A stretch of 64,000 bases of DNA from Nitrospirota bacterium (GTDB taxonomy: Bacteria; Nitrospirota; UBA9217): the NCBI GenBank assembly GCA_963737155.1, contig CAVTRN010000001.1:896001-960000 (forward strand), read 5' to 3'. The position numbers were made by a program, and so were the translations under genes. How positions within the stretch are numbered: position 1 is the first letter of the stretch; the number at the start of each line of letters is the position of its first letter. A model generated the notes under the pieces. It did no database searches. It was not told where the DNA came from and worked only from the letters and a program-made list of their open reading frames with translations. Below are positions 5,916-35,600 of this stretch, piece by piece.

Positions 5916-5947
5916 TTTCTGATAATGGATATCGGAACGGAATCAGA

Positions 5948-9391: not shown

Positions 9392-10267
9392 TTATGCGCT
9401 AATAAACAGCGCCCTTTCGATGGATTTGCGGTCCAGCATTTCTCCTATGACCACCAGACGGCTGTCCCCTATGTCCTTTTCAAACGGCGCCCTCTTCACC
9501 TTTTTGTAGACACTATCGAACAGATAGGGACCGTGGCTGGTATTGATCAATGCTTTGGCGCGAGCAACGGGCCCGAATTTTCCTCCGGCGATATCGTTGA
9601 AGACGCGGCTGATTGTTGTGAAGTCCATTTTTTTCTCCATTCGAATGGAGAGGGTCTCGAACCGGAAATGACAGTCGTTGCGACGGATCTCGCGGTGTGC
9701 CGGTGCTTCAGGCAGGGAAATACTGGGCACAGCGTTTACGGTTCGGAGAAGTACGGCACGGGGATTGATGGATCCGACCAGCTGCTCCGTGGCGGAGATC
9801 AATGCCTCCTGGGCGAGGTCGGTTTTGTTCAGCAGGAGAATGTCGGAATTCTCGATCTGGTCCTGAAAGAAGCTCCCATACATCCCTGATTCGCTCAGTT
9901 CCAGAAACTCCACAACGTCGATGATCCCAATGACCGACGCCCCGCCAAAGCCTGCGGTCTCGAGCGCTTCCAGCACACCCGAGGGCGATGCGACGCCGCT
10001 CGGTTCGATTAGCAGGCGTTCCGGAGAAAACTGTTTCACAATCCTCTGGATCGTCGTGATGAGGTCGAACTTCAGCGTGCAGCACACACATCCACTCGGC
10101 AGCTCTACGGTCTCGATGCCGCCAGAGGAGATTATCTCGCCATCGATGCCGACTGAGCCGAAATCGTTCACCATCACTACGGTTTTTTCTCCTACGCCCT
10201 GCAGAATGTTCTTGATGAACGTAGTCTTGCCAGAACCCAGTAATCCGCATACCACTGTTGTTTTCAT
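9392..10267 (-). CDS. CobW/COG0523 family G3E metallochaperone GTPase
   Basis: Walker A GLLGSGKTT, GCVCC metal motif, EPSG and NKTD; divergent from the corrinoid methyltransferase cluster. Confidence 0.9.
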   Translation of the reverse strand: MKTTVVCGLLGSGKTTFIKNILQGVGEKTVVMVNDFGSVGIDGEIISSGGIETVELPSGCVCCTLKFDLITTIQRIVKQFSPERLLIEPSGVASPSGVLEALETAGFGGASVIGIIDVVEFLELSESGMYGSFFQDQIENSDILLLNKTDLAQEALISATEQLVGSINPRAVLLRTVNAVPSISLPEAPAHREIRRNDCHFRFETLSIRMEKKMDFTTISRVFNDIAGGKFGPVARAKALINTSHGPYLFDSVYKKVKRAPFEKDIGDSRLVVIGEMLDRKSIERALFISA

Positions 10268-10755: not shown

Positions 10756-10771
10756 TGGCATCACTGTTGCA
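10756..10771 (+). promoter_or_regulatory. Sigma54 (-24/-12) promoter
   Basis: TGGCATCACTGTTGCA matches TGGCA-N6-TTGCA with the exact GG-N10-GC spacing, immediately before the ATG at 10787. Confidence 0.8.
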
Positions 10772-10786: not shown

Positions 10787-11119
10787 ATGAAGAAGACCAT
10801 CCTTTGTTCCTCCAATTCTATATTAATAAAAAACCTATATGGCATGTTAAGAGACGAAGGGTACCAAGTGGAAACCATCGAACATCCGGCCATGGCAGTG
10901 CAAATGGTCATGCGGAAGCGGTATGATTTTATTATTATCGATTCAGAACCGTTCGGACTATCCGGAGAAGATGCGGTCAAGATCATCAAGACCGTTGCTC
11001 CCGAAATACATGTCCTTTTCGTGGGGAGCGACTCCCGCGAAGACTACCGGCAAACCGCCGTACCACCGGTTGATCTCGAGATGCTAAAACGAACAATTCA
11101 CAATATGGCAATTGGATGA
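10787..11119 (+). CDS. Stand-alone atypical (pseudo-)receiver domain protein
   Basis: 'LRDEGYQVETIEHPAMAVQMVMRKRYDFIIID..GLSGEDAVKIIK' is CheY-like; the beta1 acidic pair and the KP lysine are absent. Confidence 0.7.
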   Translation: MKKTILCSSNSILIKNLYGMLRDEGYQVETIEHPAMAVQMVMRKRYDFIIIDSEPFGLSGEDAVKIIKTVAPEIHVLFVGSDSREDYRQTAVPPVDLEMLKRTIHNMAIG

Positions 11120-11148
11120 GTCATTCACTTGAAACGAAGGGAGATGCT

Positions 11149-12177
11149 ATGAAACCGAAAGAGGTATTGTTCAAGGCATTCGAGGGAGGTAAGACGGACA
11201 GGCTTCCTGTGACGCTTTTCGGCGCAGGTATGTGGAGCATCAAAGGCTGGGGCACATCGTTTGAGGCCCTCGCGCGCGACGCGGATACAATGACTGCGGT
11301 ACTGGTCGATATGAGCGCCAAACTACAGTGTGACGCAGTTTACGCCGGCTCGGGTTACAATAATTTTCATATCTCGGCGCTCGGCGGCAAGATAAAATTC
11401 CGGGAAATGGGCGCTCCTGATCTGGAAAATCACTTTGTGAATACCGAGGACGATCTCGCGAAGTTGGACTTGAGAGAACTTGATAAGGACGAAACGATTA
11501 ACACCGTTAAGAAAGCGCTGCGCCAGACTAAGGCAAAAATCGGTGATACCTATGCGGTGACCATGACGGCCTGGGGCCCCTTTACACTCGGGGCGAGGCT
11601 GGTCGGTGAAGAGACGATGATGAAAGCCACTTTTAAAAAGCCCGCTTTTGTCGAGAAGGTCGTGAATTTTGCTACGGATGTCCTGATTCATTTGTATGAA
11701 CCTCTTGTGGCCGATAAAACGCTCGAATTAATCAGTCTTGCCGACCCGACCGCGTCAGGCGACCTTATTTCCAAAAAACAGTTTGAGAAGTTCGCCGTTC
11801 CTTATCTCAAGAAATTCACCGACTGGGCAAAGTCGAAGGGCGTCCACACACTCGTTCACATTTGCGGTAACACCACGGATCGCTTGGACTTGTTCCCGCC
11901 AACGGGCGCAAGCTGCATTAGTCTGGATCACAAAACAGACATGGTAAAAGCGAAGGAAGCACTTCACGGTAAGATGTGCTTTGGCGGGAACGTTGATCCG
12001 GTTAAGATCATGCTGAACGGCTCCGTTCAGGACGTGGAAAATGCGTGCAAAGATGTGATCAAGGCAGCTGGCACAGATGGAGGTTTCGTGCTCATGCCGG
12101 GATGTGACATTCCACCGACCATTCCCTATGCAAATATCCAGAAGTTCATCCAGGTGGCGCATGAGTGGAAAGCGTAA
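11149..12177 (+). CDS. MtaA/CmuA-family (UroD-fold) corrinoid:thiol methyltransferase, copy 1
   Basis: 'WGPFTLGARLVG', 'ADPTASGDLIS', Zn ligands HICG and PGCD, 'GNVDP'; SD AAGGGAG before ATG 11149. Confidence 0.85.
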   Translation: MKPKEVLFKAFEGGKTDRLPVTLFGAGMWSIKGWGTSFEALARDADTMTAVLVDMSAKLQCDAVYAGSGYNNFHISALGGKIKFREMGAPDLENHFVNTEDDLAKLDLRELDKDETINTVKKALRQTKAKIGDTYAVTMTAWGPFTLGARLVGEETMMKATFKKPAFVEKVVNFATDVLIHLYEPLVADKTLELISLADPTASGDLISKKQFEKFAVPYLKKFTDWAKSKGVHTLVHICGNTTDRLDLFPPTGASCISLDHKTDMVKAKEALHGKMCFGGNVDPVKIMLNGSVQDVENACKDVIKAAGTDGGFVLMPGCDIPPTIPYANIQKFIQVAHEWKA

Positions 12178-12308
12178 CTTAAACGGTGCAAAAGGAGGTG
12201 AGGCGTTCGGTTAACACAAAAGGAGGTTAGTCAATGGGGATTATTGAGGTGTTGAAAAAACTGTTTTCCCGGGCACAACGTGCAACGGGCAAAGGGGAGG
12301 TAACAAAC

Positions 12309-12752
12309 ATGGCAGACAAGAAAATGACGTTGGAAGAAGTGAACGAGTACATGAAAAAGCAGTGTGGGTTCGTGCCACGCATGTTCCAGATCATCAACAC
12401 CGTTACACCGGAACCGGGCAGGACCTTTGCCGATTTTTACGCCAGCATCTTTGGCGATGGCGCCTTGTCCCGCAAGGTGAAAGAGCTGATGTTCATGTCT
12501 GGTGGCGTTGCTTACTGCTCGCCGCGCTGCATTATCCACGTGATCCCTGCGATCAATGCTGGTGCGACCACGGGCGAAATTTTCGAGGCCGCATCGGTTG
12601 GCATGATCCTCGCCGGTTTTGTGCCAGGTGGTCCCGGGATTCCCTACGCCTTTGAATACGCGCTGAAGTGCCTCGATATAGAAGCGAAGTTCCGCAAAGG
12701 CGAGAAGTGGGAGTACCTGCCGCAGCCGAAGTTCGATCATGGTGTGTTCTAA
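12309..12752 (+). CDS. Carboxymuconolactone decarboxylase/AhpD-family protein
   Basis: 'GFVPRMF', 'DGALSRKVKELM', 'YCSPRCIIH', 'AINAGATTGEIFEA'; SD GGGGAGG. The alternative start at 12234 also has an SD. Confidence 0.82.
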   Translation: MADKKMTLEEVNEYMKKQCGFVPRMFQIINTVTPEPGRTFADFYASIFGDGALSRKVKELMFMSGGVAYCSPRCIIHVIPAINAGATTGEIFEAASVGMILAGFVPGGPGIPYAFEYALKCLDIEAKFRKGEKWEYLPQPKFDHGVF

Positions 12753-12764
12753 CTCTATCTTTGA

Positions 12765-12796
12765 GGGGGAGCATTCTGGAAGCTCCCCCGTATTTT
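12765..12796 (+). terminator. Intra-operon hairpin (terminator or mRNA stabiliser)
   Basis: GGGGGAGC-N9-GCTCCCCC followed by GTATTTT. Confidence 0.6.
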
Positions 12797-12977
12797 GGAC
12801 TTATTATTTATCACGCACAGAAACAAATAAAAAAAGCCATTTATCGCGAAGACGCAAAGAGCTCTAAGAACTTCTGAAATAATATTTAAGAATACTGCGT
12901 GTCTTGGTAGTCCAATTCGGTTTTGACTTTATATGACATTGTCAGAACTGCACTGGTTAAAGAAAAGAGGAGCGAGC

Positions 12978-13925
12978 ATGTTCCGATTAAGCAAAGAACA
13001 AAAAGTATTCACCATGGCTGGCATAAGGGTCGGTGGACAGCCGGCCGAAAACCCCCCTCTCCTGATCGCCTCGATGTTCCATAACAAGGATCGCATCGTG
13101 ACCGACCGGAAGGGGAACTTCGATCGCCAGAAGGCTGCGGACCTCATCAAAACGCAGGAGCAGCTTTCGGCTTCCACCGGCATTCCGTCCATGGTTGCCA
13201 TGGTGGCGAACACGCCAGAGGAAGCGAAGATTTACATCGATTTTTACCGCGAAACGACAGCCATGCCTTTTGGCATCGACATGTGGGTCGCGGAAAAAAG
13301 GGCACAGGCCACCGAATACGTGGCTAAGCTCGGTCTTCAGGACAAGTTTCTCTACAACAGCATTACTCCCTGGGACAAGGACATCAAGGGCCAGGTCCAA
13401 AAGCTCAAGGATCTCGGCATCAAGCACGTTGTAGTCCAGGCATTCGATGATGCCGATCAGTCGCCCGTGGGCCGCCTCAAGTCTCTCGAGAAGATGCTTT
13501 CCCAGGGCGCAGATGGCTTCGACACCGTTATTGTCGATACGTCGGTTATGAACCTGCCGGCCACGTCGTTCTCCCTCGTTGCAAACCGCATGATCAAGGA
13601 GAAGTTCGGCCTTCCCTGCGGCGGCGCCTATTCCAACGGTACGCACATGTGGAAGGAAGCGAAGACCCTGTGGAGTCTCGATGGATTCAAGGCCATGGAC
13701 GCCGTTATTCAGGGAATGGCTTCGGTGATGTGGAGCGACTTCAACTTCTACGGCCCCATCGTCACGGCGCCGCGTATCTTCCCTGCCGTGGCCGCAGCGC
13801 ATATTCTGCTGAGCACACTGGTCTACGATGAAACGCAGAAATTTTCGGACACGGCAAATTTACCGATTAAACAATATTTCGGCGATTTTATCAGTAAGCT
13901 GACGACAGGGGGCACGAGGAAATAA
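12978..13925 (+). CDS. mtrH: MtrH/CmuB-family methyl-pterin:corrinoid methyltransferase
   Basis: N-terminus 'MFRLSKEQKVFTMAGIRVGGQPAENPPLLIASMFH..IVTDRKGNFDRQKA' typical of MtrH; 'LYNSI', 'IKEKFGLPCG', 'FYGPI'. No other mtr subunits are present. Confidence 0.88.
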   Translation: MFRLSKEQKVFTMAGIRVGGQPAENPPLLIASMFHNKDRIVTDRKGNFDRQKAADLIKTQEQLSASTGIPSMVAMVANTPEEAKIYIDFYRETTAMPFGIDMWVAEKRAQATEYVAKLGLQDKFLYNSITPWDKDIKGQVQKLKDLGIKHVVVQAFDDADQSPVGRLKSLEKMLSQGADGFDTVIVDTSVMNLPATSFSLVANRMIKEKFGLPCGGAYSNGTHMWKEAKTLWSLDGFKAMDAVIQGMASVMWSDFNFYGPIVTAPRIFPAVAAAHILLSTLVYDETQKFSDTANLPIKQYFGDFISKLTTGGTRK

Positions 13926-14059
13926 GCGAATACAAGAAAACGGCTTTTTTCACGTACGAGCGACCGGGTGTCTAAAGAAGGAAGGCATGTTATTATGGCG
14001 GCCCGGGATGCTCCTAGCGCGTTGGACTTGAATTTGATTGATGTTTTTAAGGAGGATAC

Positions 14060-15091
14060 ATGACAACGAGTATGACTGCACGAGAACGGGTTCTGAAGCT
14101 CTTTGCCGGCGAAGACGTTGACCGGCCGCCGTGCTTCAGTGGCATGGGAAACGTGACCACCGAGGGCCTGAAAGCGCTGAATCAGAAATTTGCGGCCACG
14201 CATCTGGACGCCAAGATGATGGCTGCCGCGGCAGCCTCGACCTATCGGCTCTTCGGGTTCGAGTGCGGCGTGGCCCCCTTTGACCTCTGCATCGAGGCCG
14301 AGGCCCTTGGCTGCGAGATAAATGTGTACGCTCATTCCGAGGACCTGCTGTATCCCACGATCAAGAAAAAGCTGATCCACAACGAGGCCGAGATGGAGAT
14401 TGCCATCCCTTCAAACCTTACCGGGCGCGGAAGGGTGCCGCTCATGCTTGATGTGATCGGGCTCATGAAGAAGGACATCGGCAGCGAGGCCGCAGTCGGG
14501 TCCTACGTACTCGGCCCCTTTACCCTGGCAGGCCAGGTCATGGAGCTGAATGATCTTCTGAAGCTCTCCTTCAAGAAGCCGGACAAGATTGGCAGGCTGC
14601 TCGACCAGCTTTCGGATGTGATTATCCAGGTCGCAGGACAGTACGAAAAGGCAGGCGTCGACTATATCACGGTGCGGGAGATGGGCGCGACTTCTGATGT
14701 TCTCTCCCCGCGGGTGTTCAAGAGCCTGATTCTTCCCTATCTCAGGAAGATTTTCGAGAAAATAACTGTCCCGAGCGTGCTCCATATCTGCGGCAAGACG
14801 AACGACATCGTTCCTTTCATGGCCGAAAGCGGAGCAAAAGCAATCAGCGTGGACCAGAAGAACGACGTGGCTGAGACAAGGAAGAAGCTCGGCCCCAGAG
14901 CGCTCGTGTTCGGCAATTACGACCCCTACAATGTGCTGGTCGCGGGAACGCCTGAGCTGGTGCGTCAGACCATGAGGAAATGCATGGACGACGGCGTAAG
15001 CGCGGTATGGCCCGGTTGCGATATCTGGCCCACGGTCCCGGCGGAAAATTTCAAGATAATGATGGACGAAGTCAGAAATTACAGGAGGTAA
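14060..15091 (+). CDS. MtaA/CmuA-family (UroD-fold) methyltransferase, copy 2
   Basis: 'MTARERVLKLFAGEDVDRPP', 'PFDLCIEAEALGC', 'GRGRVP', 'GPFTLAG', LHICG and WPGCD; strong SD AAGGAGG. Confidence 0.88.
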   Translation: MTTSMTARERVLKLFAGEDVDRPPCFSGMGNVTTEGLKALNQKFAATHLDAKMMAAAAASTYRLFGFECGVAPFDLCIEAEALGCEINVYAHSEDLLYPTIKKKLIHNEAEMEIAIPSNLTGRGRVPLMLDVIGLMKKDIGSEAAVGSYVLGPFTLAGQVMELNDLLKLSFKKPDKIGRLLDQLSDVIIQVAGQYEKAGVDYITVREMGATSDVLSPRVFKSLILPYLRKIFEKITVPSVLHICGKTNDIVPFMAESGAKAISVDQKNDVAETRKKLGPRALVFGNYDPYNVLVAGTPELVRQTMRKCMDDGVSAVWPGCDIWPTVPAENFKIMMDEVRNYRR

Positions 15092-15095
15092 TACC

Positions 15096-15788
15096 ATGGC
15101 AACGGAAGAGAAAAAGAAAGAACTCTTGGAAAAGCTCCGAAACGCCGTGATCCAGTATGATGAGGACACAGCCAAAGAAGCGGCCAATGAAGCGCTCAGC
15201 ACGGGCATGAATGCAAATGACGCCATCTTTAACGGACTCGTGAGCGGGATGGTCGAGGTGGGCCGCATGTTCGAGGCACAGGAGTACTTCGTGCCGGAAC
15301 TGCTCATGTGCGCCGATGCGCTCTACGCCGGCCTCGACATCCTGAAACCCCACGTGACGCAGCTCGACCTCGGGGTCAAGGGATCGGTGGTGATCGGGAC
15401 CGTCGAAGGCGATGTGCACGATATCGGCAAGAACATTGTCAAGATGATGTTCGACGTGGCCGGCTTCACGGTTTATGACCTGGGTCGCGACGTGCCCCTT
15501 GACAAATTCGTGCAGGAGCAGCTCCGGACTGATTCAGACCTGGTCTGCCTCTCGGCCATGATGACCACAACCATGACGGGCATGAAGAAAGTGATTGACG
15601 ATCTCCGAACCAGGAACCCGAATGTCAAGATAATGATCGGCGGTGCTCCCGTGTCTCAGGACGTGGCCGATAAATACGGCGCCGATGGCTACGCAAAGGA
15701 TGCGACGAACGCGCTCAAGGACGCAATCAACATGATCAGTTCACTCAAGAAAATGAAGGACGAGGCTGAAGCACGGAAAGCGAAATGA
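15096..15788 (+). CDS. Methyltransferase cognate corrinoid (B12-binding) protein
   Basis: Cap domain 'YFVPELLMCADA'; DxHxxG motif 'GDVHDIGKNIV'; 'LSAMMTTTM', 'IGGAP', 'GADGY'. Confidence 0.95.
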   Translation: MATEEKKKELLEKLRNAVIQYDEDTAKEAANEALSTGMNANDAIFNGLVSGMVEVGRMFEAQEYFVPELLMCADALYAGLDILKPHVTQLDLGVKGSVVIGTVEGDVHDIGKNIVKMMFDVAGFTVYDLGRDVPLDKFVQEQLRTDSDLVCLSAMMTTTMTGMKKVIDDLRTRNPNVKIMIGGAPVSQDVADKYGADGYAKDATNALKDAINMISSLKKMKDEAEARKAK

Positions 15789-16477
15789 ACCGGCTAATCA
15801 GGAAAGACCTGCTCGACCACGGCGCCGCAGTCGTCGGCTTTGCCGGGCTGCGGGGATTTTTGAGCGGAGAAATCGCCCATCTGGCGACTGCCGTGTCCAT
15901 CGGTGTGGATCGGAAGCTGAACGAGGACACACTTAGCCTGCTTATGAAGCTCCAAAAACGGGCGGTGCGGTTTTTGAAGTCCCGGGGCTATCGTACTCTG
16001 GCGATCCCGCCGGACTCGGACCGGGGGAAAGGGACTTTCATTTCAAAGCTCTACTCCCTGTTCAACCATAAGATGGCTGCTACCTCCGCGGGCCTGGGGT
16101 GGATCGGGAAGAATGGCCTCCTGATCAGCACGGAGTACGGACCGCGGCTTTCGCTGGTTACGGTGCTGACCGACGCCTCGCTCGATCCGGATGTTCCCAT
16201 GGAGTACAGTCTGTGCGGCGACTGCACGCTTTGCATGCAGTACTGCCCGTCGCAGGCGATCACGGGATTGGAATGGTCCCGGTCCTCGCCCTTTGCTGAA
16301 CTGGTGAAAACGGGCGCCTGCAGGAGCCACAAGGCGGCCAAGCGGGCAACAGACGGGAAACCTAACTGCGGGCTGTGCATCAATATCTGCCCCTATGGAA
16401 GACCGGTTGAAACCGAACAGGGAGTCAAGCTTAAGAAAAAACAGGCATCCGACAAGACACACAGCGGGCAGCAGTGA
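15785..16477 (+). CDS. QueG/reductive-dehalogenase-like double [4Fe-4S] protein
   Basis: 'HKMAATSAGLGWIGKNGLLI..EYGPRL', CGDCTLCMQYCP and CGLCINICP; ATGA overlap with the corrinoid gene; short (230 aa), no TAT signal. Confidence 0.8.
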   Translation: MNRLIRKDLLDHGAAVVGFAGLRGFLSGEIAHLATAVSIGVDRKLNEDTLSLLMKLQKRAVRFLKSRGYRTLAIPPDSDRGKGTFISKLYSLFNHKMAATSAGLGWIGKNGLLISTEYGPRLSLVTVLTDASLDPDVPMEYSLCGDCTLCMQYCPSQAITGLEWSRSSPFAELVKTGACRSHKAAKRATDGKPNCGLCINICPYGRPVETEQGVKLKKKQASDKTHSGQQ

Positions 16478-16501
16478 AAGCATTTATTGGGGAGGCAGTG
16501 A

Positions 16502-18484
16502 ATGACCAGAAATTATAAAGTGATTTTCCAACCTGCGGGTAGGCGCGGCGAAATAGAAGAGGGTAGGACTATTCTGCAGGCCGCGCAATCCCTGGGCGTT
16601 GATATCGAGGCGCTCTGCGGCAACAAAAAGGTCTGTGGCAAATGCAAGGTCCGCATCGAAGAGGGTTACTTCGAGAAAGACAACATTGATTCGGGAATGG
16701 CGCATATTTTTCCCGCCGAGCCATCGGCTGATGAGCTGAAACACATTAAACCGCAGGACGGGCCAGGGATCAGGCTGGCGTGCCAGTGCGAGATCCGGGG
16801 TGACGTCAAGGTCTTTGTTCCAGAACGCTCACGGGCCGGAAAGCAGGTCGTGCGCAAGGCGGCCAAGGAGCTCACGATCGCGATCGACCCTGCGATAAGG
16901 AAATATAATGTCGACCTCAAAGCGCCGACGCTTCATGATATGACCACCGGAGATTGGGAGCGCGTGCTCACATTTCTAGAGGAGGACTACGGCCTCAAGG
17001 GGCTGACCTTCGATTATCTTGTGTTGAAGGACATCCAGGACGTCCTGCGCAAAGGCGACTGGAAGGCCACGGTTACGGTATGGATGGACAGGGAGATCAT
17101 CAAGATCGAGCCCGGCTTCGTTGAAGCGATCTACGGTCTTGCTGTCGATGTGGGTACAACGACCTGTGTCGGCTATCTCACCGACTTGACCACGGGGCAG
17201 GTGGTGAATACCGAATCGATGATGAACCCCCAGGTGCCTTACGGCGAGGACGTCATGTCGCGGATTACCTACGCCATGAGCAATCGAGACGGACTCGAGA
17301 CCATGCAGAAAGCGATTATCCAGGGCCTGAACGAGATTATCGAGCGTGTCGTTGTCGATGTTCATAAAGACGGCCCGGAACCCGGGCGGGTAATCGACGA
17401 CCTAACGATCGTTTTCAACACGGCCATGCATCATATATTCCTCGGTCTGAACCCCGAGTACATAGGGCGCTCGCCCTTCATACCCGCAGTCCAGAGTTCG
17501 CTCGACATCAAAGCGCGCGACCTCGGGCTCAGAATTAACCCTGCATCCTACATTTATGTGCTTCCCATTGAGGCGGGTTTCGTAGGTGCCGACAACGTAG
17601 GTGTGCTGATCGCCGAGGAACCCTATAATCAGGACGAGAACGTGCTGATTATAGACATCGGCACGAACGGCGAGTTGCTGCTCGGCAACCGGAACAGAGT
17701 CTGCTCCACATCTTGTGCCACTGGCCCAGCCTTCGAAGGCGCTCAGATCAAATTCGGCATGCGCGCCGCGCCGGGGGCTATCGAGACCGTTGAGATCGAT
17801 CCGCTGACTAGGGAGCCGCGCTATAAAGTGATAGGCAAGGCGGATTGGCATACCCATATTCAGCAGGTAAACGCCAAGGGCATCTGCGGGTCAGGCATCA
17901 TCCAAGTCGTGGCCGAGATGTTCAAGGCCGGCATTATCGATAAATCCGGTCGGTTCGTGATGGACCTGGGTACACCGAGGGTCAGGAAAGATGCTGAGGG
18001 CAAACCGGAATACGTGCTTGCTTGGGCTTCGGAAACCTCGATCAGCCAGGAAATAACCGTCACCCAGGGGGATGTGAGAGCGCTGCAGCTGGCGAAGGGG
18101 GCACTCTACACCGGGGCCAAACTCATGATGAAGCGGCTGGGAATCACCCAGCTCGACCGCGTCATCCTGGCCGGCGCCTTTGGTAGCCACATCGACCGGG
18201 AGGCCTCACTTACGCTTGGCATGTTCCCCGATTGCCCAATCGACAAGATATATGCCGTGGGCAACGCGGCCGGAGACGGTTCGCGTATGGCGCTACTGAA
18301 CAGGAGCAAACGGCGCGAGGCAAGCGAACGCGCGCGATGGGTTGAGTTCGTTGAGATCGCCACGGACCCGTTGTTCGAGCGGGAATTCATGATGGCTATG
18401 CATATTCCGCACATGAAGGACAAGTTCCCGAACCTGAAGGAACTGCTTGATAAGTCGAAGAGCCCCGTGGATATCAAGGCATAG
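16502..18484 (+). CDS. ATP-dependent reductive activator of corrinoid proteins (RACE/RACo, ASKHA fold)
   Basis: N-terminal 2Fe-2S motif (CGNKKVCGKC...RLAC); DVGTTT, DIGTNGE, ATGPAFEG, GICGSG, LAGAFG, GNAAG. Confidence 0.93.
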   Translation: MTRNYKVIFQPAGRRGEIEEGRTILQAAQSLGVDIEALCGNKKVCGKCKVRIEEGYFEKDNIDSGMAHIFPAEPSADELKHIKPQDGPGIRLACQCEIRGDVKVFVPERSRAGKQVVRKAAKELTIAIDPAIRKYNVDLKAPTLHDMTTGDWERVLTFLEEDYGLKGLTFDYLVLKDIQDVLRKGDWKATVTVWMDREIIKIEPGFVEAIYGLAVDVGTTTCVGYLTDLTTGQVVNTESMMNPQVPYGEDVMSRITYAMSNRDGLETMQKAIIQGLNEIIERVVVDVHKDGPEPGRVIDDLTIVFNTAMHHIFLGLNPEYIGRSPFIPAVQSSLDIKARDLGLRINPASYIYVLPIEAGFVGADNVGVLIAEEPYNQDENVLIIDIGTNGELLLGNRNRVCSTSCATGPAFEGAQIKFGMRAAPGAIETVEIDPLTREPRYKVIGKADWHTHIQQVNAKGICGSGIIQVVAEMFKAGIIDKSGRFVMDLGTPRVRKDAEGKPEYVLAWASETSISQEITVTQGDVRALQLAKGALYTGAKLMMKRLGITQLDRVILAGAFGSHIDREASLTLGMFPDCPIDKIYAVGNAAGDGSRMALLNRSKRREASERARWVEFVEIATDPLFEREFMMAMHIPHMKDKFPNLKELLDKSKSPVDIKA

Positions 18485-18514
18485 CAGCGGCAACCGGGCA
18501 GGTGAAAGGCGGCC

Positions 18515-18829
18515 ATGACAAAAGTCGTTGTACATTCGGGAGCGTGTGGTTTTATTGTTACAATACATGCGGTGAAGAGCACAGGAGGAACAATAACGCT
18601 TCGTATCGATACGGACTGCGAGATGGTAAAAAAGATGCTCGAGGACATCTCCGTTCTTGACCGGTTCGCGGCGCTCACCGCCTTCCAGCACAATCCCGTG
18701 TATCGCTCTGCAGCAAAACACCTGAAGCATGTTGCCTGCACCGCGCCAGCGGGAATCATAAAGGCGATCGAGGTCGAGGCTGCTCTAAACGTGCCAAAAG
18801 ACGCAGATATCTGCTTCGTGAAACCATAG
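18515..18829 (+). CDS. Small Cys/His protein (DUF6951-like)
   Basis: 'SGACGF', 'TDCEMV', 'HVAC..PAGIIKAIEVEA'; co-oriented within the cluster. Family assigned from recall. Confidence 0.65.
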   Translation: MTKVVVHSGACGFIVTIHAVKSTGGTITLRIDTDCEMVKKMLEDISVLDRFAALTAFQHNPVYRSAAKHLKHVACTAPAGIIKAIEVEAALNVPKDADICFVKP

Positions 18830-18960
18830 CATCTGTCCGGCGCCTGGAGCATGCAGAGGGAAAAGACAAAAACCGACCGTTCATGGGTGGCGAACGCGCC
18901 GGCTGCATGGCCACCTCGAGTACATCAGCGTGTTATACTTAGTTTACGCGTGCTGAACGG

Positions 18961-19656
18961 ATGGATGTCATGGGGAAAATACTTATCACCGCAGCGTACT
19001 TCGTATTCGCTGTGTTCTGGATACGGTTTTTTACTCACGCGTTGATATGGTGGAATGCCGCATCGCGATTCCGGGGAACCGCCGGGCAGTCGATCCGGCC
19101 CTCCATGAAAGCATACGCGCTCACGGCAATGGACATGGTCTGTTTCGGGAAACTTCTTATGGTGAACCCGGCGCTCTGGCTGGGCGAGTGGGTATTCCAT
19201 GTCTCCTTTGTCCTGGTGTTGTTGAGGCATTTGCGGTTTTTTTTAAATCCTGCTCCTGAGTGCATATGGTGGGTCCAGACACCAGGCCTGATAGCCGGCT
19301 ATATCCTGCCGGTGTCGCTAGTCTACATCATGCTCGTCCGGTTTTTTTCAGGAAGGGAACGCTATACTTCACCGGCAAATATGTTTCTCCTCGGCCTCGT
19401 GCTTGTCATTAGCTCGCTCGGCGTTGCAATGCACCTGCTGTTCAAACCGAACCTTGTGGAGGTGAAGCTGTTCGTCCTGGGCATCCTGAGCTTCAGGCCT
19501 GTTGCAGCGCCTGAGAGCTTTCTGTTCGCGATTCATTTCTGCCTGGTCCTGGTCCTGATTCCCTTTCTCCCCACTCATCTTTTCTTTGCTCCCTTCGTGA
19601 TGATGGAGGCAAGAAAGCGGGAGCAGGCATTGCGTCTGGTAATGCATGAAAAATAA
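18961..19656 (+). CDS. NarI/DsrM/HdrE-family di-haem cytochrome b membrane subunit
   Basis: About 5 TM helices; His pairs in 'WVFHVSFVLVLLRHLRFF' and 'AIHFCLVLVLIPFLPTHLF'; overlaps the hdrD start. Confidence 0.82.
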   Translation: MDVMGKILITAAYFVFAVFWIRFFTHALIWWNAASRFRGTAGQSIRPSMKAYALTAMDMVCFGKLLMVNPALWLGEWVFHVSFVLVLLRHLRFFLNPAPECIWWVQTPGLIAGYILPVSLVYIMLVRFFSGRERYTSPANMFLLGLVLVISSLGVAMHLLFKPNLVEVKLFVLGILSFRPVAAPESFLFAIHFCLVLVLIPFLPTHLFFAPFVMMEARKREQALRLVMHEK

Positions 19657-20863
19657 GCGTTCGTTCACAGAAGAGCTTCTCCCCCAACAGATCCTCGAAA
19701 TCGGTGCCTGTACTCGGTGCGGCGAGTGCCTCAAGCACTGCCCTGTTCAGGACGTGACGAGCAATCCCTCGATCTCCCCGCCTGAGAAAATCCGCATGTT
19801 TCGTGAATTTATCCGCTCTACCGATGGACTCAAGTCAACGCTCTTCGGGTCCGGGAACGTGGATCGGAAGCTGCTGGATGACTTTACCCGGGCGGTATAT
19901 GAATGTACTACGTGCGGTGCTTGCGGCCAGAATTGCCCGGTCGGCATCTTTACGCAACGTCTCTGGCCCATGCTTAGGAAAGAGATGGTCAAGCGGGGGC
20001 TTGGACCAATTGGCGCCCAGGCGAACATACCGAAGGCGATCATGAGCAGCGGCAATCCCTATGAGAAGCCATCGTCTGAACGATACCATCCGTGGTTCCC
20101 GAGATATGTGAAAATAGCGGACCGGTCGGAAATAGCCTATTATGCCGGTTGCACTGGTGCGTATGAAGCGCAGCCCATGGTTCGTGGTGATATCCTTGTG
20201 CTTGATGCGGTCGGAGCGCCCTTTACCATGCTTCCCCCGGAGGAAGAGGTCTGCTGCGGATTTCCCCTCTTCATTACCGGACAGCACGACCAGCTCACGG
20301 ACCTCATTATCCGCTTGGTGAAGGGATATGAGGCGCGGGGAGTGAAGATCTTGGTCTGCTCCTGCCCCTGCTGCGTGAATATCATGACCAGGGACTGGCC
20401 CCTGTTCTATGGCAAGTCGCTGCCCTTTAAGATACGGCACATTACGCAATATGTCTCTGATGCGATCAAGGATGGCAGACTGCGTGTGAAAAAGGAGCTG
20501 CGCGAAGCAGTGATCTACCATGACCCGTGCTACCTCTCGCGCGGTGTAGGAGTAATCGAGGAGCCGCGAAACGTGCTGAGGAGCATCCCGGGGCTTACTC
20601 TGCTGGAGTTCGAACACCACGGCGTCAACTCCCGTTGCTGCGGCTCGGGAGGGGCGGCAAGAAAGGTCTACAATGATAACGCGATCGCCATGGGCAGGCT
20701 AACGATCGACGAAGCGGTGGCAAAGAAGGCTGACCGGCTGATCCTAAGCTGCCCGGCCTGCTATGCCAAGGTAAACGAAGCCATGCAGGGACACAAGAAC
20801 CAGATCCGGATCACGGATATCATGGAACTGGTGAGCATCATGATTGAAGGTGACAGATCATGA
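19646..20863 (+). CDS. hdrD: HdrD-type heterodisulfide reductase catalytic subunit (2x[4Fe-4S] + 2 CCG domains)
   Basis: CTRCGECLKHCP and CTTCGACGQNCP; GCT..CCG..CPCC and HDPC..CCG..CPAC; 405 aa. Segments such as 'MVKRGLGPIGAQ' and 'DWPLFYGKSLPF' track Methanosarcina HdrD as I recall it. Confidence 0.8.
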   Translation: MKNKRSFTEELLPQQILEIGACTRCGECLKHCPVQDVTSNPSISPPEKIRMFREFIRSTDGLKSTLFGSGNVDRKLLDDFTRAVYECTTCGACGQNCPVGIFTQRLWPMLRKEMVKRGLGPIGAQANIPKAIMSSGNPYEKPSSERYHPWFPRYVKIADRSEIAYYAGCTGAYEAQPMVRGDILVLDAVGAPFTMLPPEEEVCCGFPLFITGQHDQLTDLIIRLVKGYEARGVKILVCSCPCCVNIMTRDWPLFYGKSLPFKIRHITQYVSDAIKDGRLRVKKELREAVIYHDPCYLSRGVGVIEEPRNVLRSIPGLTLLEFEHHGVNSRCCGSGGAARKVYNDNAIAMGRLTIDEAVAKKADRLILSCPACYAKVNEAMQGHKNQIRITDIMELVSIMIEGDRS

Positions 20864-22119
20864 GTCATTTTTCTATTCGTTGTAGGAAGTGCGACAAAAC
20901 CCTTGAGAACACGTACTGTGTCTTTTGCGAACATTGCGCTGACGCGCTCTTGGTGACGGATTATCACCAGGCTCATTTCTCAGAACGCGCGGCCGGCGGC
21001 GCATGGCGATTCAACTGGCTGCCGGTGCACGAACCGCAGGCGGCTCAGCCCGGTCCCGTGGTGTACCGGTCCCAGGGTCTTGCCTGGAGTCTTGGTCTGG
21101 ATAATCTGTTTATTGCCTTTAACGGCTACTGGCCCGAACGCGGAGCGTTGCTCGAGACTTGTACATTCAAGGAATTCGAGGCGGCCGTCGTGCTCCAGAA
21201 TGCCCGTGAGAACGGTGTAGAAGGCCTGGTTGTCGCTTCTGCTGGAAACACGGCCCGGGCCTTCGCCCATCTTTCTGCGGTCACGGGTTTTCCGGTTATC
21301 ATTCTCGTGCCGCGAATGTGTCTCATGGAAATGTGGTACCTTGAAAGCAAAGCCACGATAGCTACGCTCGCGTTAGGTGACGGTGATTACGCCGATTCCA
21401 TCGATGTTGCCAAGCGGGTCGCCGCAACAATCGGGTTCCCCTTCGAGGGCGGCGTTAAGAACATAGCCAAGCGCGACGGTCTCGGCATCGTGATGCTCGA
21501 GGCGGTCTCGACGATTGGGAGACTACCTGACCACTATGTCCAGGCCGTGGGAAGCGGCACAGGTGCAATCGGCACCTGGGAAATGGCGGAACGTTTTGTC
21601 AAAGATGGACGTTACGGCTCCCGACTGCCTCTCATGCACCTCGGCCAGAATCTGCCATTTGCACCGATGCTTCATGCCTGGGAGCAGGGCAGCAGGACAC
21701 TGTTTCCCGACGACTTGAAGCCGGAGTTGATCTCTCGGATCACGACGCGGGTCCTTTCGACCCGCTATCCCGCATACTCGGTCATCGGCGGTGTTTACGA
21801 CATGCTCTCCGCAACCCGCGGAATCATGTATGGCATTGAAAATGACGAAGTCTATGCCGGCATGGAAATGTTCCAGAAGGCCGAAGGCATCGACATCGTT
21901 CCCGCCTCGGGCGTTGCGGTCGCCGTGCTCCGGGAGGCCCTGCATAGGAGGGCCATTAAAAGCAGCGATACTGTTCTCCTGAACATTACGGGCGGCGGAG
22001 AAGCGAGACTGCTGCAGGACAGAAAGACCCATGCTGTTGTGCCGAAGTACATATCCAGGAACATCACCGAGAGAGAGGTAGAGGATCTGCTGTGCCACAA
22101 CCTGAAGAAAAACTCATAG
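20860..22119 (+). CDS. Cysteate synthase (PLP-dependent, threonine-synthase fold; Methanosarcina MA3297 type)
   Basis: 'LFIAFNGYWPERGA..TCTFKEFEA' (PLP Lys), 'ASAGNTARAF', 'EGGVKNIAKRDG', 'PDHYVQAVGSGTG', 'QNLPFAPM'; directly upstream of comDE. Confidence 0.9.
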   Translation: MSHFSIRCRKCDKTLENTYCVFCEHCADALLVTDYHQAHFSERAAGGAWRFNWLPVHEPQAAQPGPVVYRSQGLAWSLGLDNLFIAFNGYWPERGALLETCTFKEFEAAVVLQNARENGVEGLVVASAGNTARAFAHLSAVTGFPVIILVPRMCLMEMWYLESKATIATLALGDGDYADSIDVAKRVAATIGFPFEGGVKNIAKRDGLGIVMLEAVSTIGRLPDHYVQAVGSGTGAIGTWEMAERFVKDGRYGSRLPLMHLGQNLPFAPMLHAWEQGSRTLFPDDLKPELISRITTRVLSTRYPAYSVIGGVYDMLSATRGIMYGIENDEVYAGMEMFQKAEGIDIVPASGVAVAVLREALHRRAIKSSDTVLLNITGGGEARLLQDRKTHAVVPKYISRNITEREVEDLLCHNLKKNS

Positions 22120-23234
22120 ACTTGCTCAGGAAGAACGGAATTGATTTTACCGCATCGCTTCCCTGCGAGAAGATTAAAACCCTTCTTGACCTGGTGGATC
22201 GGTCCTTCCCGCATGTCCCCCTCACGCGCGAGGAAGAAGGCGTCGGCATATGCGCCGGCGCTGCGCTCGCTGGCAAAAAACCGGCCATCTTCATCCAGAG
22301 TTCCGGCATCGGGAACATGATCAATGCCCTGCTGTCGCTCACGGCATTCTATGAACTGCCTCTTGCGCTATTTATCAGCAGACGGGGCATCTACCAGGAG
22401 AAAATCGAGGCTCAGTTCCCCATGGGCCAGCGGCTTCCGTCAATCCTGGATGGCGCAGGGATCGGCTATTCGGAAATCAACACTGTTGATGACCTCGCCG
22501 TTGTTGACGTTGAGTTGCCGGAGGTCTACCGAAAGAACGTGATTCATGCTTTCCTGCTAAATCCGGCAGTGTGGGAAAACTCGGATTGCCGATCACAGAC
22601 TGCGAATTGCGGATTTAAGCAAAAAAAAACCGGTGTTCAGAATGCATCACCAATCGTGCCGCATGCATTGCGGCCAATACTCACACGGTATGAGATTTTG
22701 AAAACCATTGCTCCCTATCTTGACGGCAAGGCAGTTGTGTGCAATCTCGGATGGCCCTCCAAGGAACTGTATGCAATCAAGGACCAGCCATCGAATTTCT
22801 ACATGCTCGGTAGCATGGGCATGGCCACGCCTATCGGCTTGGGCATCTCCCTCACGTCATCCAAAGAGGTGGTCGTGCTCGATGGCGATGGAAGCCTGCT
22901 CATGAATCCCGGAACACTGGCGACCGCTGCCGCTGCCGCACCCCGGAACCTGATGATCATCGCCATCGACAACGGAGCTTATGGCTCGACAGGAAACCAG
23001 CCGACACTGACGGCATCCTGCACGGACCTGGAGCAGGTGGCGAGGGGATTCGGATTCAGGGAGACGGTGAAAGCAGCGTCAGAAAAGGAATTTGTAGAGG
23101 TTATGAAACAGCATCTGCAGGGTGTTGCCTTTATCCATGCCCTGGCAATACCGGGAAACAAGGATGTGCCGAACATTCGACTCCATCATCTTGAGATCAA
23201 AAAGCAGGTGCAGGATTTTTTGAACAAACCATAA
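22092..23234 (+). CDS. comDE: Fused sulfopyruvate decarboxylase ComD-ComE (TPP-dependent)
   Basis: Alpha part 'SLPC..LTREEEGVGICAGA..QSSGIGNMINAL..EKIEAQFPMG'; beta part 'NLGWPSKEL..NFYMLGSMG..GDGSLLMN..DNGAYGSTGNQPT'; GTG start, 28-nt overlap with cysteate synthase. Confidence 0.9.
   Translation: MPQPEEKLIDLLRKNGIDFTASLPCEKIKTLLDLVDRSFPHVPLTREEEGVGICAGAALAGKKPAIFIQSSGIGNMINALLSLTAFYELPLALFISRRGIYQEKIEAQFPMGQRLPSILDGAGIGYSEINTVDDLAVVDVELPEVYRKNVIHAFLLNPAVWENSDCRSQTANCGFKQKKTGVQNASPIVPHALRPILTRYEILKTIAPYLDGKAVVCNLGWPSKELYAIKDQPSNFYMLGSMGMATPIGLGISLTSSKEVVVLDGDGSLLMNPGTLATAAAAAPRNLMIIAIDNGAYGSTGNQPTLTASCTDLEQVARGFGFRETVKAASEKEFVEVMKQHLQGVAFIHALAIPGNKDVPNIRLHHLEIKKQVQDFLNKP
22582..22616 (+). 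repeat. Five degenerate 7-mer repeats (CGGATTG consensus) in the ComD-ComE linker
   Basis: CGGATTG CCGATCA CAGACTG CGAATTG CGGATTT, followed by an A9 tract at 22621-22629. Confidence 0.5.
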
Positions 23235-23247: not shown

Positions 23248-23847
23248 TCATAACCGCCCCGAAGTTCCGTATTCCCGGACATAAACCTTGATAGCCCTGA
23301 GGATTATCCAGTCAAGGGTGACGTTGTTCTCCTTCGCGATGCTGATCAAGGCATCGATCGTATCTTTGTCAATGACGGGTATGTCTTGCGGTTTAGCCGT
23401 CTCCGCAGCCGCTGTTTCCAATTCCGCTGCTTCTAATAATTCCTCTCCTGCTTCGGGATTCCGTTTCAGATGTTCCCGCCGCAGCATGTCCGTCAATTCC
23501 TGCACGTTGCCGCCCTGAATGGCGCTTCGAACATCCCCGGGAACATCCCCTGCCGTGATCGCTTGCTCAGGTATCGCGCCTTCCAGCGGCTGCCGCAAAT
23601 TTAACTCCGGCGGTGCTCCCTGAGACATGCCGGTCATTCCAAGCATCATGGTCACCAAGTTCCTGGCATATTCATTATCAGGCATTTCCTGCTTGAGCAA
23701 CTCATCAAGTTTGCCTTCCACCATGGCCGCTGCCATGCGGTCTGCTGTCAGGGATTCACGGTTCTCGCTCTTCTCGGACGACTTTTTCCAGCCGAATGCG
23801 GTGGTCGGCGGCGTAGGTAGAGGTTTGTTCTTATCTGTTTTTTTCAT
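23248..23847 (-). CDS. Hypothetical protein, possible C-terminal ribbon-helix-helix-like segment
   Basis: 199-aa ORF with SD GAGGGG; C-terminus 'IDKDTIDALISIAKENNVTLDWIILRAIKVYV'. Confidence 0.65.
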   Translation of the reverse strand: MKKTDKNKPLPTPPTTAFGWKKSSEKSENRESLTADRMAAAMVEGKLDELLKQEMPDNEYARNLVTMMLGMTGMSQGAPPELNLRQPLEGAIPEQAITAGDVPGDVRSAIQGGNVQELTDMLRREHLKRNPEAGEELLEAAELETAAAETAKPQDIPVIDKDTIDALISIAKENNVTLDWIILRAIKVYVREYGTSGRL

Positions 23848-23954: not shown

Positions 23955-24899
23955 TTACCCCGTTATTGCGATCCCATCGTGATAATGCTCTTTTTCGGGA
24001 TGAATGTGGTCGATAATCTCCCGTGAGAAGATCCGATCCGGCCCCACAGCGGAGCCGATATATCCTCTTTTTTCTAAAACCGGCACGAACTTCATGGTCG
24101 AAGCGATATATTCCCCCGTCAATTGGGCGCAGTATTTTGGCGAAACCGCAAGCGTATCTCGTACAAATTCCTGATCGATGATGCCGACGAAGTCCGCGAT
24201 CGCGAGCGCGGCATCTGACGGATGCTGTCTTATAAACGCGGTGGCCTCCTCATGAAGGAGAAGGAACCGTTCCACGGTCTTCTTTTCTGCCTGCAGGAAT
24301 CTCCGGTCAGCCACGATACCGTAGCTCGGGTTGGCAGGCCAAAGCAACGACGGGGGGTACAATATCTTACCACCGGCAAAGCGCTTGATGGCGACGGCGA
24401 GCGCGGGAGTACCGAATGCTGCCGAGACCTCATCATGAACAACGGCTTCGGTTACCAGATCAGCCCATGGATAATTGACGATCGTGACCTCCGAACCCAG
24501 ATCATATCGCTCAATACAGTCCTTCAGGATGACGTCATGGATCGATCCTTTTCCGGGCACGCCGATTCTTCGTCCCCGGAACTGCTGCAGGACCGCGCGC
24601 AAATCCGCCCCCTCGGCATGACCCAGCCATTGAGACTTACCGGCCATGACCGTTCCTTCCATGTGGCCGCCTGCCAAGCAGATTACGTCGATACCCTGTG
24701 CAATACCGATAATCGCCGGAGGAAGCCCGATATAGGCAAGATCAAGCTCGCGGTTCTGAAAAGCCTGCATGATGGCAGGACCGGTACCCAGCAGCTTCCA
24801 CTCCACCTCTGCCTCAAGGCGGGCATTGGTGTTTCCCTTTGCCATCAACAGAATCGCTGTATGATAAAAGGTCGACAGATGACCTATCCTGATCTTCAC
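23955..24899 (-). CDS. SsuA/NMT1/THI5-fold substrate-binding-like protein lacking a signal peptide
   Basis: GTG start with SD AGGAG; 'KIRIGHLSTFYH', 'GPAIMQAF..ELDLAYIGLPP', 'RIGVPGKGSIHDVIL'; no adjacent permease or ATPase gene. Confidence 0.8.
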   Translation of the reverse strand: MKIRIGHLSTFYHTAILLMAKGNTNARLEAEVEWKLLGTGPAIMQAFQNRELDLAYIGLPPAIIGIAQGIDVICLAGGHMEGTVMAGKSQWLGHAEGADLRAVLQQFRGRRIGVPGKGSIHDVILKDCIERYDLGSEVTIVNYPWADLVTEAVVHDEVSAAFGTPALAVAIKRFAGGKILYPPSLLWPANPSYGIVADRRFLQAEKKTVERFLLLHEEATAFIRQHPSDAALAIADFVGIIDQEFVRDTLAVSPKYCAQLTGEYIASTMKFVPVLEKRGYIGSAVGPDRIFSREIIDHIHPEKEHYHDGIAITG

Positions 24900-35594: not shown

Positions 35595-35600
35595 GGCCTC

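Follow-up and report, generated by a model that had tools for sequence, protein, structure and literature searches.

We analyzed a 64,000-nucleotide stretch of the genome of a Nitrospirota bacterium (GenBank assembly GCA_963737155.1, contig CAVTRN010000001.1, positions 896,001 to 960,000 of the forward strand; hereafter the window), in which 13 co-oriented + strand open reading frames (ORFs) at 10787-23234 form a block that unites three modules: corrinoid-dependent methyl transfer, a cytochrome b with an HdrD-type protein, and two genes for precursors of coenzyme M (CoM), cysteate synthase and a fused ComDE (Table 1). Families were assigned by Pfam and NCBIfam profiles, with the curated NCBIfam cut-offs as the pass mark, which the cysteate synthase, ComDE, MtrH-family, and MT2b proteins reached. 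Gene families, motifs, conservation, co-occurrence, and genome background, as given below, were observed directly. The original prediction, made from the letters of the window alone, had described these 13 genes, and every one was recovered as an ORF carrying the Pfam or NCBIfam family named for it. As predicted, the last four overlap one another, by 11 nt (cytochrome b and HdrD), 4 nt (HdrD and cysteate synthase), and 28 nt (cysteate synthase and ComDE).

Table 1. Features of the block and its flanks, with positions in the window; the last column gives the number of loci, of the 41 Nitrospirota loci compared for synteny, that have the gene.
Feature	Position	Strand	Basis	Loci (of 41)
CobW/COG0523-type GTPase, candidate metallochaperone	9392..10267	-	Pfam cobW, CobW_C; divergent from block	
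Sigma54-type -24/-12 element TGGCAT-N5-TTGCA, TGGCATcactgTTGCA	10756..10771	+	GG-N10-GC pattern	
Stand-alone degenerate receiver (REC), 110 aa	10787..11119	+	PF00072, 37.9 bits	
MT2a, divergent MtaA/CmuA-like URO-D methyltransferase	11116..12177	+	PF01208, 203.6 bits	
AhpD/CMD-like protein, 147 aa, C-S-P-R-C-I-I-H motif	12309..12752	+	PF02627	
MtrH family	12933..13925	+	PF02007; NF002142 324.2 (cut-off 287)	38
MT2b, MtaA-like URO-D methyltransferase	14060..15091	+	PRK06252 265.1 (cut-off 244); TIGR01463 247.7 (cut-off 235.4)	40
Corrinoid (B12-binding) protein	15096..15788	+	PF02310, PF02607; TIGR02370 205.9, just under cut-off 215.3	40
QueG/RdhA-core protein, 2x[4Fe-4S]	15785..16477	+	Pfam, NCBIfam	39
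RACo-type ATP-dependent corrinoid reductive activase	16502..18484	+	PF14574, PF17651, PF17650, PF00111	40
DUF6951 protein	18515..18829	+	PF22263, 98.5 bits	41
NarI/HdrE/DsrM-type dihaem cytochrome b, about five membrane helices by eye	18961..19656	+	DsrM model 60.5 bits	37
HdrD-type CCG protein	19646..20863	+	PF02754 in two stretches, PF13183; best NCBIfam match TfrB, 180.5 bits	38
Cysteate synthase	20860..22119	+	TIGR03844 460.2 (cut-off 324.9)	
Fused ComDE	22092..23234	+	TIGR03845 185.1 (cut-off 147.95); TIGR03846 229.9 (cut-off 221.5, narrow pass)	
Conserved 199-aa protein	23248..23847	-	No Pfam or NCBIfam match; often beside ComDE	
SsuA/NMT1-like binding protein	23955..24941	-	PF13379, PF09084; TIGR01728 84.4 (cut-off 163.5)	
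PAS-GAF-PAS histidine kinase	24902..27127	+	Domain search	
NtrC-type sigma54-dependent response regulator	27198..28589	+	PF00158, PF00072, PF02954	

Gene content of the block

The cysteate synthase is the sole copy over the cut-off in the host genome (G000), and among 14 control genomes only that of Methanosarcina acetivorans passes the same model. ComDE stays under the cut-off of the phosphonopyruvate decarboxylase model TIGR03297 (213.8; cut-off 312.5). ComA (PF02679), the alternative entry to the pathway, was found in none of eight genomes searched, G000 included.

The membrane module resembles HdrDE of Methanosarcina and DsrMK in combining a NarI-type dihaem cytochrome b with a protein having two [4Fe-4S] and two CCG motifs, encoded by overlapping genes. 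Two His pairs are present in the cytochrome b, with H80, H90, and H192 nearly invariant and H206 invariant among 35 sequences, a four-His set that we take to be the NarI pattern, and paralogous copies in relatives match PF02665. Both ferredoxin-type [4Fe-4S] motifs and both CCG motifs of HdrD are complete, as in HdrDE; among 25 sequences, 18 of their Cys residues are invariant and C238 is nearly so. Orthologues carry the JGI name "heterodisulfide reductase subunit D", and the protein collection holds 1973 relatives at E 1e-20 or better. Unlike DsrMK, the pair in the block is not linked to dsr genes and scores far under the DsrK (96.1; cut-off 400) and DsrM (60.5; cut-off 300) cut-offs; a separate DsrK-like CCG protein is encoded near dsrAB (C2:1117136).

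In the methyl-transfer module, MT2a and MT2b share the URO-D fold and the His-x-Cys...Cys zinc ligands that characterize MtaA, MtbA, and MtsA. H248, C250, and C330 of MT2a are invariant in 19 of 19 sequences, both zinc motifs of MT2b are present in all 37 orthologues, and alignment of MT2b to MtaA of M. mazei (4ay7, E 7e-45) brings the HICG and PGC motifs into register. We infer from these motifs that MT2b is a methylcobamide:thiol methyltransferase with a His-Cys-Cys zinc site. The best PDB matches of the MtrH-family protein are MtrH (8z9u) and a methylcorrinoid:tetrahydrofolate methyltransferase of D. hafniense (6sj8), and it is thus probably a methyl-corrinoid:pterin methyltransferase, the pterin probably being tetrahydrofolate. 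The family profile of the QueG-like protein, which has eight invariant Cys residues, matches QueG (5d6s) and PceA (4uqu). Because locus L020 encodes a QueG-like protein and RACo in a single 968-aa ORF (L020:3430-6336; QueG/RDH at residues 94-203 and RACo at 313-947), we read the QueG-like protein as the probable redox partner of RACo. The DUF6951 protein has a Cys3-His set (C11, C35, H72, and C75) that is invariant in 37 sequences. No fusion of it to another protein was found, which the search tool itself rates as weak evidence, and a metagenome scan for its context outside the phylum gave only the same block. Selenocysteine was considered in the AhpD-like and MT2b genes and rejected, as each in-frame stop falls either within a spurious N-terminal extension or beyond the point where the gene really ends.

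No other protein of the block approaches the AhpD-like protein in conservation, a point that is new in this analysis. When the 20 loci with a full set of 12 genes are compared with the window, its identity has a median of 97% and a minimum of 88%, as against medians of 87% for the corrinoid protein, 81% for RACo, and 45-78% for the other genes; put differently, its identity is 88-100% over loci in which that of the other proteins is 36-98%. The mean column identity of its alignment is 95%, with four Cys residues and one His invariant. It aligns to AhpD (5dik) with the first Cys one residue off, C-S-P-R-C-I-I-H standing against the C-P-G-C of AhpD. The start of the gene lies at 12309 and not at 12234, since the upstream extension contains stop codons in two relatives. 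Homologues in Chloroflexota (2 of 401 sampled genomes; 52-65% identical) keep one Cys and the His and lack three of the four Cys residues; the C-X3-C pair (C70/C74) and two further Cys residues set the Nitrospirota form apart. Conservation this tight would suit a carrier in contact with several partners. The two Chloroflexota genes (L169 and L170, in G468 and G705) lie near a haem-copper oxidase subunit I gene; the neighbours of one type are an NMT1-type binding protein and an ABC ATPase, and those of the other type are an aminotransferase, a luciferase-like monooxygenase, and a pyridoxal phosphate (PLP) decarboxylase.

An element with the GG-N10-GC pattern of sigma54 promoters ends just 16 nt ahead of the first ATG. 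The original prediction had placed the whole block behind this promoter, a claim that stands on conservation and not on the element by itself: the window contains 31 matches to the pattern at up to 2 mismatches (30.8 expected), and TGGCATcactgTTGCA, taken by itself as a match with one mismatch, is no better than chance. However, an element of this kind lies just 5' of the REC gene in all four relatives with enough upstream DNA, fitting the pattern in L054, L055, and L062 and with one base changed in L015, and a gene for a sigma54 activator (27198-28589) is nearby. The 13 genes are presumably read as one transcript. Predicted terminators and sigma70 promoters did not exceed the shuffled-sequence count, with none in the + strand intergenic gaps, and no Rfam family matched in the window. 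In the degenerate receiver encoded by the first gene, S-S/N replaces the acidic pair that follows strand 1, and five orthologues also have something other than D-D there; the central Asp is kept. Of the genes 3' of the block, the 199-aa protein has homologues 3' of ComDE in many loci. The SsuA/NMT1-like protein, which has no signal peptide when read from the first start codon, is a candidate cytoplasmic sulfonate sensor.

Conservation and co-occurrence

A search seeded with the cysteate synthase returned 63 genome loci, of which 59 are labelled as Nitrospirota, Nitrospirae, or Thermodesulfovibrionia type. Three others are distant (two Heimdallarchaeota and one Dehalococcoidales; cysteate synthases 41-45% identical and over the cut-off). 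The last, L007, is labelled Betaproteobacteria; its contig coordinates and scores are the same as those of G031, from the window's own genus, so the public label or the binning looks wrong. The distant genes in L064 (Dehalococcoidales) and L063 (Heimdallarchaeota) stand in other contexts: one adjoins a BioF/serine-palmitoyltransferase-like acyltransferase gene, which could point to a sulfonolipid route, and the other a gene for phosphoadenosine phosphosulfate (PAPS) reductase.

Synteny was tabulated for the 41 Nitrospirota loci that extend 9 kb or more upstream of the cysteate synthase (Table 1). ComDE lies directly 3' of the cysteate synthase in 50 of 51 loci, and gene order holds even where protein identity falls to 55-65%. 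A metagenome scan seeded with DUF6951 left 80 loci, and the 36 contigs of at least 6 kb that were compared were all pieces of the same block in the same order. Among 401 sampled Nitrospirota genomes, 70 have the cysteate synthase and 74 the AhpD-like protein used as a marker, with both present in 68. The two genomes with the cysteate synthase and no marker are incomplete (65% and 74%); those with the marker alone, six in number, comprise one with a split gene, two in which a contig ends inside the block, and three of genus g39. The methyltransferase and hdr/com halves of the block co-occur across the phylum; the original prediction had named their never occurring together elsewhere as a ground for refutation. 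The block is accessory and not core, as 9 of the 19 genera of the host's own family carry it. Both the cysteate synthase and the AhpD-like marker are present in Candidatus Sulfobium mesophilum and in strain Nbg-4.

Foreign genes were found inserted only at the joint between DUF6951 and cytochrome b, a regularity that suggests two sub-operons. In L028 and L038 the insertions comprise SsuA-family binding proteins with signal peptides, which pass the TIGR01728 cut-off (194.7; cut-off 163.5), together with a permease and an ATPase; such a binding protein is also present in L056. Together with the SsuA-like protein beside the kinase, these insertions make the central small molecule look like an aliphatic sulfonate. 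A chemoreceptor gene is inserted in L036 and L038. FolD is inserted in L009 and a methylenetetrahydrofolate reductase (MTHFR) gene lies just 5' of the REC gene in L054, which would connect the methyl groups to folate. A second cytochrome b/HdrD pair is present in L028 and L038 and a second HdrD-like gene in L031 (confirmed by Pfam), and L033, L041, and L045 have a second HdrD-like match of about 30% identity (by tblastn only).

Genus g39 offers a variant, examined at the locus of G098 (L162 and L165; family f3). Here the methyltransferase module is complete and is accompanied by the kinase and activator genes, which in L162 lie directly 5' of the methyltransferase genes. Beside the module are genes for a small, divergent membrane protein and for an HdrD-like protein (42% identical). 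On its 3' side are a radical S-adenosylmethionine (SAM) gene, a SAM methyltransferase, and a B12-radical SAM gene, and a COG1900 gene is encoded elsewhere in the genome.

Host genome

The genome that contains the window is 4.84 Mb in 2 contigs and is rated 100% complete; its owner is an uncultured sulfate-reducing soil bacterium of the Nitrospirota. That the host is bacterial and not archaeal, as the original prediction had it, is borne out by window genes of bacterial kind (AcrAB pumps, sigma54 regulators, and a D-Ala-D-Ala carboxypeptidase by Pfam) and by a search of the complete genome in which mcrA was not found. Nor did the contig show any sign of a false join: contigs about 96.5% identical, from another soil metagenome, bridge the three module joints (RACo-DUF6951-cytochrome b at 16221-19445, HdrD-cysteate synthase at 19647-21121, and cysteate synthase-ComDE at 21115-22178), with no signal at any joint. 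The runs listed for this stretch are soil and peat metagenome contigs, with no RNA run among them.

Among the genes that had been singled out beforehand for a search of G000, acsB and dsr were found and mcrA and ComF (COG1900) were not. G000 carries aprA and dsrB beside an intact dsrA, and sulfite and sulfide are thus internal metabolites; a TAG codon suspected to interrupt dsrA proved to be the gene's own stop codon, and that candidate was rejected. Because acsB is found in 57 of the 64 genomes of the family and is thus nearly universal whether or not the block is present, the Wood-Ljungdahl pathway was discarded as a discriminator. A menaquinone pool is supported by two MqnA/D family genes of the futalosine route. 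With nothing over the Xsc cut-off and no glycyl-radical enzyme in G000, there is no known degradation route for sulfoacetaldehyde or isethionate in this genome. MttB and MtaB were likewise not found in G000.

Discussion

We consider it highly probable that the three modules work together, in which case they would make up one functional unit kept in anaerobic Nitrospirota. MT2a, MT2b, and the MtrH-type enzyme would share one corrinoid protein, held at Co(I) by RACo and the QueG-like protein, with the AhpD-like and DUF6951 proteins as putative further members of the methyl-transfer module. Cysteate synthase would make cysteate from phosphoserine and the cell's own sulfite, a housekeeping aminotransferase would convert it to sulfopyruvate, and ComDE would convert that to sulfoacetaldehyde, which might be thiolated by a ComF-independent route to CoM or a close sulfonate thiol. 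MT2b would shuttle methyl groups from this thiol to the corrinoid protein or back, MT2a would serve a second sulfur compound in the same way (methanethiol or dimethylsulfide, for example), and MtrH would tie the corrinoid protein to methyl-tetrahydrofolate and hence to the Wood-Ljungdahl pathway. HdrDE would pass electrons between menaquinol and the disulfide, so that the thiol/disulfide couple would be balanced with the quinone pool, and the adjacent kinase and activator may switch the block on via sigma54, possibly in response to a sulfonate. In this scheme the substrates throughout, the thiolation step, the direction of methyl flow, and co-transcription are what we infer, and we regard the whole chain, including a CoM-type sulfonate thiol, as evenly poised between right and wrong. 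By analogy, the block may work as a soluble, Mcr-free version of the methyl-CoM/heterodisulfide machinery of methanogens.

In favor of the chain are the family assignments that reach curated cut-offs, the overlapping genes with no predicted terminator in their gaps, the kept synteny and co-occurrence, the invariant zinc ligands, the CCG motifs and four His residues of the membrane module, the sulfonate-type genes tied to the block, the folate genes FolD and MTHFR together with acsB, the aprA, dsrA, and menaquinone genes, and the lack in G000 of any known route that degrades sulfoacetaldehyde. Several observations weigh against this chain. No COG1900 protein (ComF/MMP16 or L-ASST, PF01837) matched in the complete host genome; 10 of the 401 sampled Nitrospirota genomes have one, none of them among the 70 carriers of cysteate synthase, and no gene able to add a thiol was found to co-vary with cysteate synthase and ComDE. 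MT2a passes no curated cut-off (TIGR01463 180.7; cut-off 235.4), and MT2b is under the equivalog cut-offs of both MtaA (245.8; cut-off 400) and MtbA (180.1; cut-off 600). The His-Cys-Cys set marks the S/Se-methyltransferases of the UroD superfamily, in which O-demethylases replace the cysteines (PMC10418091, section 9), and, according to the same source, it fits methanethiol, dimethylsulfide, and selenide as well as CoM. CoM is not required for passing a methyl group from a thioether on to folate. HdrDE is missing from four loci (L015, L110, L122, and L123) that keep the rest of the block, com genes included. Conversely, genus g39 (G090, G098, and G137) has the methyltransferase module without cysteate synthase, and none of its three genomes has ComDE over the cut-off or ComA. 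That each pair of modules can occur without the third fits a cofactor that is either made or imported, and equally fits a looser coupling.

The prediction that CoM serves as methyl and thiol carrier therefore held in one respect, the thiol-type His-Cys-Cys set in both MT2 proteins, and was weakened by the lack of ComF and by the g39 and HdrDE-less variants. Similarly, recycling of a disulfide against the quinone pool, which had also been predicted, agrees with the CCG motifs, the four His residues, and the menaquinone genes, but not with the four loci lacking HdrDE.

The closest counterpart of the com genes is the type 2 CoM cluster of M. acetivorans, which consists of cs (MA3297), comDE (MA3298), and MMP16/ComF (MA3299) (PMC11844431). 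As in that cluster, the cysteate synthase of the block adjoins a fused ComDE and both pass their equivalog cut-offs. Unlike in that cluster, COG1900 is lacking in G000 and in the 70 carriers, the host is a bacterium, and the pair overlaps HdrDE, being translationally coupled to it, behind a corrinoid methyltransferase module. Since COG1900 was found in no carrier, the CoM thiol stays conditional here, and, ComF having been searched for without success, the block does not amount to a complete methanogen CoM pathway. M. acetivorans lacking MMP16 still makes CoM if sulfide is present, but the backup proposed for it is also a COG1900 protein (PMC11844431), so MMP16-free synthesis favors our scheme only a little.

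The methyl-transfer genes resemble the MtaA, MtbA, and MtsA systems in having the URO-D fold with His-x-Cys...Cys, a cognate corrinoid protein, and an ATP-dependent activase. They differ in that G000 has no MtaB or MttB substrate methyltransferase, in that the equivalog cut-offs of MtaA and MtbA are not reached, and in that an MtrH-type folate enzyme is present where methanogens have the membrane Mtr complex. The activase of the block is of the RACo type, unlike in methanogens, which use RamA.

A more specific form of the proposed chain supposes genuine CoM, made by a last step unrelated to ComF and turned over in an Mcr-free CoM cycle in which the AhpD-like protein might stand in for coenzyme B. 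In such a cycle the MtrH/corrinoid/MtaA-type chain would exchange methyl groups among tetrahydrofolate, CoM, and methylated sulfur compounds, and menaquinone-linked HdrDE would reduce the heterodisulfide, whose second half may be the AhpD-like protein. We hold this form to be possible but unlikely, in each of these parts.

Alternatively, the methyltransferase module may be self-sufficient, a methyl-sulfur, methyl-selenium, or halomethane:tetrahydrofolate system acting on outside substrates, with the com genes only co-regulated and their sulfonate serving as a taurine or isethionate solute, a sulfite sink, or a signal. The g39 genomes, in which the module exists without genes for sulfoacetaldehyde, agree with this, as do the two sub-operons suggested by the insertion joint and the lack of ComF in G000 and all carriers. 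Known systems point the same way. His-Cys-Cys Mlp enzymes have been tied to the use of methyl sulfides and methyl selenides without CoM (PMC10418091), and by its Pfam and NCBIfam families the block has the make-up of a type 1 mlp gene cluster (PMC10418091), an assignment by gene content. Type 1 mlp clusters as described there have no folate methyltransferase, whereas the block has MtrH. The main text of that paper contains no mention of Nitrospirota, Thermodesulfovibrio, MtrH, or CoM biosynthesis, and has "heterodisulfide" only in its introduction and references. The mec cassette, which serves anaerobic dichloromethane breakdown in Dehalobacterium, Candidatus Formimonas, and Candidatus Dichloromethanomonas, has the same list of parts as the module: a kinase and regulator, a corrinoid protein, several URO-D methyltransferases (three in all) including a member of the MtaA/CmuA group, a folate-binding methyltransferase II, and corrinoid reactivation proteins (PMC9768040). 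Unlike the block, the cassette as listed in that paper has neither Hdr nor CoM-precursor genes, and its MecF has a pterin-binding site, where the folate enzyme of the block is of the MtrH family (PMC9768040). The phylum of the host differs too. The mec hosts are Firmicutes and the host of the block belongs to the Nitrospirota.

A merely co-regulated set of com genes is, however, difficult to reconcile with their near one-to-one co-occurrence with the module (68 of 70 and 68 of 74 genomes) in an order kept down to 55-65% identity, with the overlaps that run from the cytochrome b gene through HdrD and cysteate synthase to ComDE, or with the sulfonate importers and the sulfonate-type binding protein tied to the block, which itself has no gene for the end step toward taurine or isethionate. 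On balance we consider a self-sufficient module improbable, though it deserves serious attention.

Another possibility is that the partner of HdrD is the AhpD-like protein, acting as a DsrC-like Cys carrier between the methyltransferases and the membrane complex, either alone or joined to the sulfonate thiol in a mixed disulfide. It is the most constrained gene product of the block (median 97%, minimum 88%, as compared with 45-87%), its four Cys residues and one His are invariant, it can be aligned to the redox motif of AhpD, its C-X3-C pair and two more Cys residues distinguish the Nitrospirota form, and the dsr genes are served by a separate DsrK-like protein. Yet the protein is still 98% identical in L015, a locus without HdrDE, so HdrD cannot be the sole source of the constraint. 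A search for fusions joining the AhpD-like protein to a partner gave none (weak evidence by the tool's own rating), and such a carrier would leave cysteate synthase and ComDE unexplained. We thus think it distinctly unlikely. A sulfonate thiol acting as a general redox buffer, with HdrDE as its reductase, the AhpD-like protein as a peroxidase partner, and the link to methyl transfer incidental, is very improbable: overexpression of comDE protects methanogens from oxidative stress (PMC12713407) and the block does contain an AhpD-family protein, but a patchy block (70 of 401 genomes; 9 of 19 family genera), tightly wired to methyltransferase genes and with a sigma54 two-component system of its own, is ill suited to a core buffer.

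CoM is known from methane- and alkane-metabolizing archaea and from alkene-oxidizing bacteria (PMC11844431). If the proposed chain with a CoM-type thiol is correct, there would be a third, widespread use of CoM in sulfate-reducing Nitrospirota of soils, paddies, peat, and groundwater; mtaA, hdrD, and comDE would be read differently in metagenomes; an unknown CoM synthase would be indicated; and the consumption or production of methylated sulfur by these bacteria, in competition with methanogens, might be explained. The block hints that a "methanogen" cofactor or a close relative of it is used by bacteria that make no methane, and at 70 of 401 sampled Nitrospirota genomes it is common enough to matter. 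The original prediction had held this combination to be undescribed in bacteria, and our literature search, which covered main texts, agrees in that no description of it was found; the supplements of the Candidatus Sulfobium, mlp, and mec papers may list the genes. The relevant terms are not present in the main text of the Candidatus Sulfobium paper (PMC5812927). Added here, besides the conservation of the AhpD-like protein, are the phylum-wide co-occurrence table, the COG1900-free carriers, the g39 and HdrDE-less variants, and the QueG-like/RACo fusion.

Additional observations

The NCBIfam CobW and ZigA matches of the divergent GTPase at 9392..10267 are under their cut-offs, and a CobW-type GTPase homologue adjoins the cluster in L015, L029, and L163. 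G000 has two further URO-D/corrinoid/RACo systems, at C2:686000-705900 (L077) and C2:546000-562000 (L076). One of them adjoins MTHFR and includes CobW, a CbbQ/MoxR ATPase, DUF2284, and DUF1638; both of its methyltransferases are of the His-Cys-Cys type, and in the other system the first zinc cysteine is replaced by Ala. Roughly 100 kb from the block, at C1:1058585-1064116, are four neighbouring matches to the nitrogenase family (PF00148), the last two sharing one 886-aa open frame, in a row that resembles nifD, nifK, and a fused nifEN; because this sole PF00148 row resembles an ordinary nif cluster, it gives no sign of a link to methylthio-alkane reductase.

Within the window, a second RACo (38932-40854) is AcsV-like (710 bits, under the cut-off of 800), and further along are a NapH-like membrane ferredoxin (51453-52478) and a pterin-binding protein resembling methyl-tetrahydrofolate:corrinoid methyltransferases (52743-53615). 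An HlyD-type membrane-fusion protein followed by two consecutive AcrB-type resistance-nodulation-division pumps is encoded at 1317-9058, and a polyamine row on the - strand (34089-37024) comprises an Orn/Lys/Arg decarboxylase, a spermidine synthase, and a SAM decarboxylase.

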